Shown piece by piece: positions 55,401 to 58,400 of a stretch of 64,000 nucleotides of DNA. A program made the translations under genes and the position numbers. The notes beneath the pieces were generated by a model that saw nothing but the letters and a program-made list of their open reading frames with translations, searched no databases and was not told the DNA's origin. Source of the stretch: Podarcis muralis (taxonomy: Eukaryota); contig NC_135658.1 in NCBI RefSeq assembly GCF_964188315.1, positions 3,658,001 through 3,722,000 on the forward strand, given 5' to 3'. The first letter of the stretch is position 1. Each line of letters opens with the position of its first letter.

Positions 55401-58400
55401 ATAGTTTTGCCGTTAAAATCCCTCCAACATGCCAGTTCCACAAACGTTGCTGTCAGGGGCTCAGGAGCAGAGGCACAGGAAAGGGAGGAAATAGAGAGCG
55501 AGGGGGAGGAATCTGAAGGAAATGTTAGCGATGACAGCGGTCCGAGGTCTCTGAGTCTTTCCAGCGAATCGGAAGATTCACAGAAAGGGGCTCCCATGGT
55601 CAGAGCAAGGGGGGTGCCTAGGGGGACACCCCAGGAAGAAGGGGCCAGAGGGGACTCAGAGAGCAGCAGTTGGAAATCAGGACCAGCTTCCCCACCAGAG
55701 CGCAGTAGGGGGGAGGAGTCCCAGGTATCGGGATCAGGAGGCTCACCGCCAGCGGGAGGAGAGGAGTCAGGATTGGCCACGCCTCCATCGGAGAGCGAGG
55801 AAACGGTCAAGAGGAAGGTTGGAGGCTGGGCGCGCGCGCCAAGTTCAAATGTACAGGAGGGCGGCGCAGTTGGCAGCCCGGATAGGGAGCCAGGTCCCAA
55901 AGCCCGCCGAAAGGAGGGGGAGGAGTCAGGGGGGTCAGCGTCAGAAGAGTCCAGAAAGGAGGAGACCCCGGGGGGCAGAAGGACCCAGAGGAGAAAGGAG
56001 AGACGGAAGAGGTGGAGTAAGGTTAGAGTCTTAAGCTGGTGTACAGGGGGTGGAGACTCAGATGGAGCTTCGCCAGTCTAAGGACTCAGACGTAGCGCTG
56101 CGCGCCACTGATGTCCAACCAACAATGAACCGCAATAAAGACTTTTGTTTATAAAGAGCAACTGGCGTTGGTCCTTTGTGAGCTGGGACCTGAGGCAGCC
56201 GCTGACAGTTGCAGAAATTGTTTTCCTGTGTTGTGGCCAGAACCCACACACTCACCGCTGAATACTTTCTTGGTTTCCTTGTGCAGGTTGGAGACAGCAA
56301 TTCTTGCTGCGAGGATAGCATAGTCAGGGTGCTTGGTTGTCAAGGTTGCTGCTGTTTCAGCGGCCAGAGTATCCAGTTCTACAGTAGTGACTCCACTGTA
56401 AAGGCCCTGGATCACTTTCATGGTGATCTGAGCCTGGACAAAAAAAAAAAAAAAAAAAAAAGAGCAAATACTCACAAAGTTAGTTTGCTATAACGGGGGG
56501 GGGGGGGGGTGTAAGTCAGTTTTGATGACTTTGTTTGCCAGAGAACTATATGAATTTTGTAGCAAAGCTGTCCACTTGGTTCCTTTCACTCTCAAGGTGG
56601 TTAAAGTAATATGGAGATTGAGATGCCTCAACAAGAGTAACTGTATGAATCTTATAACAGGTGGGCAATGGGAGGGATGAGAGGGGGAAAGGAGTACTCA
56701 GAAGGCTGGGAAGTTGAGTAACGGCAGTTCCACAGTGATTGCTTAGTGGGAGCAAGGCTTAAAACTTGCAAGGTACCACCTGTAAATATAACCATGCTGA
56801 ACGAAATACCGCATTTTTCACTCTATAAGACGCACCAGACCACAAGACGCACCTAGTTTTTGGAGGAGGAAAACAAGAAAAAAAAAATCTGAATCTCAGA
56901 AGCCAGAACAGCAAGAGGGATCACTGTGCCGTGAAAGCAGCAATCCCTCTTGCTGTTCTTGCTTCTGGGATAGCTGTGCAGCCTGCATTCGCTCCATAAG
57001 ACGCACACACATTTCCCCTTACTTTTTAGGAGGGAAAAAGTGAGTCTTATAGAGCAAAAAATATGGTACTTCGGAGGTATTCTAGATTCCTCAGAATTTT
57101 ACATAAAAACTTGTTACCTTAAGTGGCCATTTTCCCTGGAAGGCAGTTTACAGATTTATTTATTTTTAAAATGGCATACACCCAAAAAGCAGACTGGTTT
57201 CCAAATCAGACTGAGGCAACTGTGCACAGACTGGAACTTCAAATGTATATTTTGTGGACCACAGCAGCAAAACACTGCTTTGTCACTATCATGAATAGAA
57301 CTTTCCTCAGCATACAAGGAGCTTCATTCATTTATTCATGAGAATTTACGTTCCACCATTCCACTACAATGTGCTCAAGACGTTTTACCGTCCTTGTTTT
57401 ATCTTAGACCACGACAGACGCATGATAGCACCGAAGACACTCACAGGGTCGACGAAGTCCAAGTTGAGACCGTAACACAGTTTCTGGATCCGGGACGTGA
57501 TCTTGTCAAACATGACGCGCTCATGGCGCCCATCTGCCGAAAACAGACAGGCACATTTAGCATCACTTGCTGAGCAAACGCTGTACTGGGTGAGGGTCCA
57601 GTCAAGGGTTTGGCCTCACAGCCTCTACCACTGCTGCCATATCCCTCCCAGAAAAACTAACTAGCCCCTCCACCAAGTAGAAAAAAATGGGATGCAAATG
57701 GAATAAATGGGGACATCCAAACATTTGAAACAGACACTTCACAAGCTCAGTGACCCAAGGGATATCAATGTGAGCCTGTCATCACAAGGGCCCTTGCATC
57801 CCAAACGGCAATTTGGGGAGTGGTGATAATGTGAGGGGTGGCAAGGGGAGATGTAGCTGCACCCAACCTGGGCCAGAGGACACCACCCCAGGGTGCCTCT
57901 GGAGATGCTTCTCTCCAGAGCCTGCAAGGTGGCACCTCGGGGTGTCCTGGGCTGACCCTGGAGGAGTGGGGGGAGGGGGCGGTCTGGCAGGAACCAAGTG
58001 CTGCCTCACTCCTGGCATCAGCAAACCCACCACCACCACCCATGCCTCTGGGTGTGGTGCAGCAGAGAGACCAGGGTTCGAATCCCTCCTCAGCCACTGC
58101 CTCTCCGCCTAGCCTACTTTGCAGGGTTGGTGCGGGGATTAAAGGGGTGGGCGGGAGAACCGCCTTGCACACTGCCTTAAGTGCCATGGGAGGGGGGGGG
58201 AGGCAAGCTGGAGTTTTATTATTTTTATTATTATTACTACTACCAATTCATTTACACCTGCGACAGGGACCCAGGCAGTTAAAGTGAATGCAGCAAGGGA
58301 GCCTCCACGCCACCTCCAGACCCGCTTGCTGTTAATATGAGTTGTTGTTTTTGTTGTTGTTAAACTGACAATCTTGACCTTCTCCCACGCTACACACAAG

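Follow-up and report, generated by a model that had tools for sequence, protein, structure and literature searches.

Can the LTR of a Ty3/Gypsy retrotransposon encode protein and, if so, which protein? The question is raised by a solo LTR on the forward strand of a 64,000-nt stretch of the Podarcis muralis genome (contig NC_135658.1), referred to here as the window. The element is 757 bp in length (55451..56207), begins and ends with TG..CA, and is flanked by an exactly repeated 5-bp TSD, GTTGC (55446..55450 and 56208..56212). From its second base it remains open for 209 codons, reaching a TAA stop at 56079-56081 (55452..56081, forward strand), and the other two forward frames contain 10 and 7 stops. 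The predicted peptide carries KRK at codons 120-122 (55809..55817), which we take to be NLS-like and which lies in a V-[KR]-RKV motif conserved in an alignment of seven copies. A 13-residue basic cluster follows at codons 176-188 (55977..56015), belonging to a basic block that is kept in all subfamilies and in a second lineage described below, and the peptide ends in GDSDGASPV. An in-frame ATG at codon 49 (55596..55598), in good Kozak context, would yield 161 aa if used. The initial annotation had described the LTR, the open frame, the basic cluster, the peptide end and the ATG accurately and had proposed that the LTR encodes an accessory protein.

Taken singly, the window copy is only suggestive, since an open run of this length is modestly beyond chance. 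Among 5000 dinucleotide shuffles, a 209-codon run was matched in 1.3-1.5% on the forward strand and in 2.1-3.3% when both strands were counted. Moreover, a minus-strand frame (55379-56077), overlooked in the initial annotation, is also open across the same stretch of the LTR. The reality of the coding frame rests on evidence from the family rather than on this one copy.

Searching the 1.52-Gb genome of the lizard itself yielded 4533 candidates, among them 40 scored LTR matches at 94-100%, and the family is a large, young, Tf1/sushi-type chromovirus of this lacertid. LTRs of the window's type flank full-length gag-pol elements of 6.5-6.6 kb with 5-bp TSDs. The parental gag encodes a capsid and a zinc knuckle, while Pfam places PR, RT, RH and IN in that order in the pol of one parent (L032), followed by SH3_Tf2-1; the gag/pol overlap contains GGGAAAC in 15 of 16 elements of this lineage (lineage 1). 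In the parents, pol crosses the PPT (...GGMD-VRGSG...) and continues through all of U3, in the frame that begins at 55452, to the same stop. A single frame of 1540-1568 codons spans pol and U3 in 12 of the 16 delimited full-length copies, representing subfamilies A, B and C; this share is biased, as the full set of 19 loci, three of them lacking an LTR pair, includes copies picked for their long frames (L135-L148). Among three parents recovered by DNA search, one had a continuous pol-U3 frame and two were broken, and, in a count made by eye, 21 of 150 integrase matches had open frames exactly 1566 codons long. Of 123 LTRs, 106 keep the U3 frame open as far as the shared end point, among them 18 of 24 window-type solos, and each of the other two forward frames has between 2 and 12 stops in every copy. 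UniRef entries for Podarcis muralis Pol already include the tail, although they pass over it without comment. The expectation that a parental ORF reads across the PPT into U3 was thus correct as regards an integrase (Pol) tail, in frame with pol, and was not supported as regards an ORF3.

Several further observations were made on the family. A further subfamily, D, is represented by a 776-bp solo LTR (L081:410-1185) with an open U3 frame of 216 codons and a peptide that is 71% identical. When the window copy was compared with L032 and L097, the R/U5 region past the stop (56082-56180) differed sharply even though U3 was ~98% alike, pointing to recombination between subfamilies at the border of R. 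Another candidate parent, a young, full-length, non-chromoviral Gypsy element within the window (23721-28602), was ruled out by its 300-bp LTRs and its failure to match the LTR by blastn. Its two LTRs are identical, its pol lies in two frames, and it has at least 150 copies in the genome at 91-100%.

The LTR also encodes signals of its own, and these bear on how the frame could be read. An 11-nt self-primer at 56060..56070, overlapping the last Pol codons, is exactly complementary to the PBS in 29 of 31 5' LTRs, and its five variants covary on both sides. Pol's last codons vary with the primer variant, giving DGAS, DEAS or EGTS. Self-priming has been described for Tf1 and implicated in elements from fungi to vertebrates, with the primer being the 5' end of the RNA (PMC4600332, PMC6317226). 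Position 56060 is, by this reasoning, the predicted start of LTR-driven RNA and of R, so that the predicted U3 (55451..56059, 609 bp) would lie wholly upstream, would be wholly coding in the parent, and would be followed by a Pol stop ~20 nt into the predicted R. A TATA-like CTTAAG (56030..56039), its TTA located 29 nt before the self-primer, may serve as the promoter while also encoding L194-S-W196. The TTA is kept in 9/10 lineage-1 and 24/26 lineage-2 copies, the 29-nt spacing in lineage 2 being read by hand. An AATAAA poly(A) signal, kept in all subfamilies, occurs 53 nt past the stop (56134..56139). Four RNA runs examined as raw reads showed no fitting pile-up at a start site or poly(A) site, and no CAGE support was found.

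These features allow the proposed accessory protein to be weighed. HIV nef and MMTV sag are encoded on U3 promoter DNA but are separate genes, expressed from spliced RNAs with their own starts. By analogy, the lizard frame could yield a 161-aa product from the ATG at 55596, with either solo LTRs or a subgenomic RNA as its source. The good Kozak context of the ATG would favor this, as would a bulk RNA depth over the LTR that is 20-50 times that over the internal region, although most of that RNA comes from one other solo copy (see below). However, 53 of 55 window-type copies encode Met at codon 49, whereas every one of the 65 B and C copies readable there has Val or Leu, and no Met position is common to all subfamilies among the 123 LTRs collected. 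The codons that precede the ATG (1-48) are no less constrained than the rest, with an omega of 0.22 for codons 1-70 between A and B, and there is no stop between pol and the U3 frame. Furthermore, with the start of transcription predicted past U3, the promoter of a solo or 5' LTR would leave U3 untranscribed, making the 3' end of the genomic RNA the sole place in which U3 could be read. RNA reads showed no splice joint into U3 at the low depth available, and 16 reads in one run (X21) pass from PPT-like sequence into U3. Because the ATG is missing from two subfamilies and the predicted start site lies past U3, the U3 frame is a Pol/integrase tail and not a separate accessory protein. At the level of the family, the accessory protein is largely refuted, and we regard it as very improbable. 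The lizard frame differs from nef and sag in that a separate ORF with a conserved start on a subgenomic RNA was not found; what survives of the comparison is the presence of protein code within U3 DNA, for which the plant CR motif considered below is a better analogy.

Family-wide comparisons indicate that the tail is maintained as protein. Between subfamilies A and B, the U3 frame has accumulated 53 synonymous and 47 nonsynonymous changes, distributed 17/23/60 over the three codon positions, and its dN/dS of 0.22-0.30 is similar to that of gag (0.15-0.21) and unlike that of the other forward frames of U3 (1.0-2.2). The window copy gave a value of 0.28 against B (bootstrap 0.18-0.42), and all 21 pairs among seven copies fell at 0.23-0.55. 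A GY codon model returned an omega of 0.35 for 37 copies, fitted on a fixed FastTree tree, and 0.33 for 12 elements. As a control, the 5' and 3' LTRs of 16 elements were compared, yielding 16 synonymous changes, 34 nonsynonymous changes and one stop (positions 13/22/16), a ratio of ~0.9 that differs from the A-B comparison (Fisher p=0.015). In pol, A and B differ by four indels, each with a length divisible by three. Constraint on the protein is also apparent in the seven-copy alignment, where 56 of 82 invariant residues differ in codon. Nonetheless, constraint on U3 is much weaker than that on the enzymatic domains, with omegas in the 12 elements of 0.045 for RT, 0.075 for IN and 0.041 for the chromodomain. 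The acidic linker that precedes the LTR is weakly constrained at 0.54, rising to 0.92-1.2 between A and B. A test of singleton versus shared changes was significant in B only (p=0.005; W p=0.13; C p=0.75). The purifying selection and the depletion of stops that the initial annotation had set out as checks were both found in this frame. In the linker, one pair of elements showed an unusually low dS (0.145 at pol codons 1201-1348 of L032 against L097, versus 0.3-0.6 elsewhere) with an omega near 1; this is unexplained, recombination and RNA constraint being candidate causes.

The same comparisons bear on strand and composition. It might be supposed that the antisense frame is the one selected, or that the frame stays open simply through a shortage of T, since T amounts to 12% of the frame and the shuffle p value is ~0.013-0.03. 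W copies and the majority of B copies also have an open antisense frame, with a raw omega similar to that of the sense frame, although the two share their third positions. Third-position transversions nevertheless track the sense frame, occurring at 13 of 107 sense 4-fold sites versus 3 of 101 2-fold sites (two independent pairs, p=0.017), and the same test on antisense degeneracy classes showed no effect (p=0.25). In subfamily C, a stop interrupts the antisense frame of 28 out of 30 copies, and the other two forward frames, of the same composition, hold stops in every copy as noted above. The sense peptide is devoid of Tyr and His and poor in Gln, a makeup that eliminates most of the possible stops in the antisense register concerned. 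We consider a selected antisense frame or a compositional by-product to be extremely improbable; the tail is under purifying selection, and on the sense strand.

The tail can also be examined in a second lineage of elements carried by this genome. A profile search of 1.84 billion representatives found 13 proteins, and two distant ones led to this lineage, whose RT is 70-73% identical to that of lineage 1 and whose LTRs measure 400-483 bp. Its pol likewise crosses U3, over 100-125 codons, and stops just inside R, past an 11-nt self-primer whose PBS complement was found in 8 of the 11 elements with an LTR pair. The U3 frame reaches the common end in 26 of 34 3' LTRs, and intact frames of 100, 102, 109, 110 and 125 codons differ by whole codons only. 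An in-frame tandem duplication of ~22 codons occurs in the U3 of four lineage-2 copies (L191, L192, L196, L197). The tails of the two lineages have no detectable homology (hhalign probability 0.6%), yet they follow a similar plan: an acidic, Ser/Gly-rich start gives way to an Arg-rich block and then to L-x-W. As this shared end overlaps the TATA-like site at a fixed spacing, its conservation may in part reflect a constraint on DNA.

The main alternative to a functional tail is an inert read-through kept for RNA reasons. Under this explanation only openness would matter, for instance by bringing the stop close to the poly(A) site and so limiting long-3' UTR decay; the conserved blocks would be promoter, primer or RNA signals, and the tail itself would be inert or cleaved. 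The location of the stop, ~20 nt into R in both lineages, fits this idea, as do the variable length of the tail (100-218 codons), the near-neutral omega of 0.75 for the N-terminal part of the lineage-2 U3, and the fact that the TTA and the primer are signals in DNA or RNA. On the other hand, the omega of 0.33 in lineage 1 extends over 177 codons away from the promoter, synonymous variation is common at invariant residues, and the last 45 codons of the lineage-2 U3 have an omega of 0.18-0.22. In addition, Arg codons in the lineage-2 basic block alternate between AGR and CGN, and most ribosomes would in any case end at gag. We judge an inert read-through to be unlikely. The preferred explanation, which we hold to be very probably correct, is that the frame comprises the last 209 codons of pol and is selected, its likely product being a disordered tail of the integrase translated from the 3' LTR, and that the solo copy in the window is a likely silent remnant.

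The fate of the window copy itself is consistent with its being such a remnant. It is located antisense in a 1117-bp GT..AG intron (55139..56255, minus strand) of a host gene that, from the translation of its exons, is presumably RRM1-like. Sixteen spliced reads join 55138 to 56256, occurring in 3/3 RNA runs, so the LTR is spliced out with the intron, which also argues against its serving as the source of an accessory protein. No sign of the copy being expressed as its own transcript was seen in the RNA runs examined, and it is likely a silent, ordinary remnant. The deeper RNA coverage of the LTR noted earlier is mainly element-sense; in runs X23 and X24, reads on 55451-56080 derive mostly from another solo copy (141-191 junction reads), recognizable by a flank ending in ACGT/ACGTG, which lies whole and in element-sense orientation inside a host transcript. 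That transcribed solo could be a route to a U3-derived peptide or to exaptation. Among the indexed runs, none of those containing the sequence is recorded as RNA. The RRM1-like gene is adjoined by three intact olfactory-receptor-like genes (15429-16451, 21547-22566 and 34378-35670), whose family assignment, like the synteny of RRM1 with mammals, is our assumption.

The neighbors of the tail in the protein were also examined. A chromodomain is matched on the C-terminal side of the integrase (PF00385, E 4.5e-4), although its 20.5 bits fall under the curated cut-off of 25.1, and its best PDB matches are CBX5/HP1. When aligned to CBX5, the cage residues Y, W and F are replaced by N, R and T in lineage 1, leaving 0/3 cage aromatics, and lineage 2 retains only the W; the full set of three aromatic cage residues that defines group I (HP1-like) chromodomains is found in neither lineage. 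No Pfam family was matched by the U3 peptide. An AlphaFold model of the chromodomain plus tail, based on an eight-row alignment, had a mean pLDDT of 41.6, a value to be read in light of the chromodomain itself being unresolved too. An ET-binding or PP1-type motif in KVRVL was considered but rejected, as it is not retained in subfamily C. It is on balance probable that the basic clusters of the tail serve in nuclear import or chromatin anchoring.

The genomic distribution of the family is also uneven. One 30.4-Mb contig (C20) accounts for 45 of 150 integrase matches; of the remaining 105, 67 are no more than 1 Mb from the end of a chromosome (33 at left ends, 34 at right ends), versus an expected share of 2.6%. 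In the non-chromoviral Gypsy family of 23721-28602, used as a control, 14 of 129 copies lie within this distance, again against an expected 2.6%. Among young copies, 13 of 38 B-like elements are near ends versus 1 of the 54 youngest control copies (p=2e-5, or p=3e-4 when collapsed by end). Solo LTRs have no such bias (1/23), and identical 3' flanks at 5 of 18 loci identify segmental duplicates that inflate the counts at ends; together, these two observations indicate that retention contributes to the bias. Four full-length copies (L119, L120, L129, L148) were found beside or within arrays of 89-241 telomeric hexamers. Contig C20, which may be the W chromosome, has a strong excess of all three LTR families (45/150, 21/150 and many lineage-2 matches) and contains tandem segmental duplicates with subfamily B nested inside A. 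That the tail sets the chromosome-end bias is conceivable but doubtful, and the chromodomain, which is conserved although it lacks the cage, is just as good a candidate.

Comparison with known systems places these elements near, but outside, several groups. In plants, pol of CRM group A extends across the PPT into the 3' LTR, where the LTR encodes a putative CR targeting motif, and the elements concentrate in one chromosomal compartment; pol of Reina Bingo1-4/7 likewise extends into the 3' LTR (PMC3059260, PMC3605345). The initial statement that Ty3/Gypsy LTRs are normally non-coding overlooked CRM group A and some Reina elements. The lizard elements resemble CRM group A in that their coding region also enters the 3' LTR. 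However, the CRM elements belong to plants, are primed by tRNA-Met, are centromeric, and have a CR motif in place of the chromodomain, whereas the lizard elements belong to a vertebrate, are self-primed, keep a cage-less chromodomain upstream, extend the frame through all of U3 into the predicted R, and are biased to both chromosome ends. Neither the tRNA-Met PBS nor the replacement of the chromodomain by a CR motif is seen in the lizard, and a CR-motif match was returned by neither Pfam nor the profile search of representative proteins. The lizard element works like CRM at most and is not a member of it.

By its domains and priming, the lizard element can instead be assigned to the Tf1/sushi-type chromoviruses, with a fish Tf2-like similarity that appears through the chromodomain only. 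It shares with vertebrate Tf1/sushi elements (sushi-ichi, Amn-san and those of fish) the order of gag followed by pol with PR-RT-RH-IN-SH3_Tf2-1-chromodomain, the 5-bp TSD and a self-priming PBS (PMC4600332, PMC6317226). A terminal region with a GG-x-V signature occurs in 68 of 120 fish-type proteins, in 49 of these ~20 residues from the end, which, judging from protein sequences, suggests a short LTR read-through of ~20 residues in fish relatives. The fish proteins keep the cage W and Y and have a basic block before the PPT, in contrast to the acidic pre-PPT linker, eroded cage and basic block 100-200 residues into U3 of the lizard elements. Ty1 and Ty5 (Copia) offer a different parallel, as they possess a disordered integrase C-terminal tail with a basic NLS and a tethering role; the lizard tail resembles theirs in being disordered and basic but is encoded in the LTR, whereas theirs is encoded internally. 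Vertebrate elements have been described with group I (caged) chromodomains (PMC3350952), and an insertion in corn-snake OCA2 is Copia and hence irrelevant here (PMC4657000). The entry of pol into the 3' LTR is thus already known in plants; the literature searched yielded no vertebrate element in which all of U3 is coding, although an earlier mention is possible.

A cycle can be proposed from these features. Transcription would begin at the self-primer in the 5' LTR, and Gag-Pol would be produced through a -1 shift at GGGAAAC, presumably much as in PEG10. The protease would then free an integrase carrying the cage-less chromodomain, the acidic linker and the tail, which, as the C-terminus of Gag-Pol, would stay on the integrase, and the basic clusters could act as an NLS or as a nucleosome or chromatin anchor. 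The solo LTR of the window would have arisen by LTR-LTR recombination and would still be open because it is young. It is tempting, if rather speculative, to go further and suggest that the elements lost the cage and recoded the whole U3 into a basic-ended integrase tail, which would direct integration to subtelomeric chromatin by tethering; vertebrate elements would in that case have converged on the CR motif of plants. One stretch of DNA would then act as promoter, self-primer and protein code at once.

For the biology of these elements, the findings describe vertebrate Ty3/Gypsy elements whose entire LTR promoter region doubles as protein code under selection, a state seen in two lineages whose tail sequences are unrelated. 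The tail may represent a small module (~45-210 residues) for nuclear entry or site choice by vertebrate chromoviruses with a cage-less chromodomain, and the chromosome-end bias provides a measurable phenotype. In turn, the open frame is present ready-made in thousands of solo LTRs, where it is available for exaptation by host transcripts. Finally, annotation of these genomes should avoid treating ORFs within LTRs as genes in their own right.
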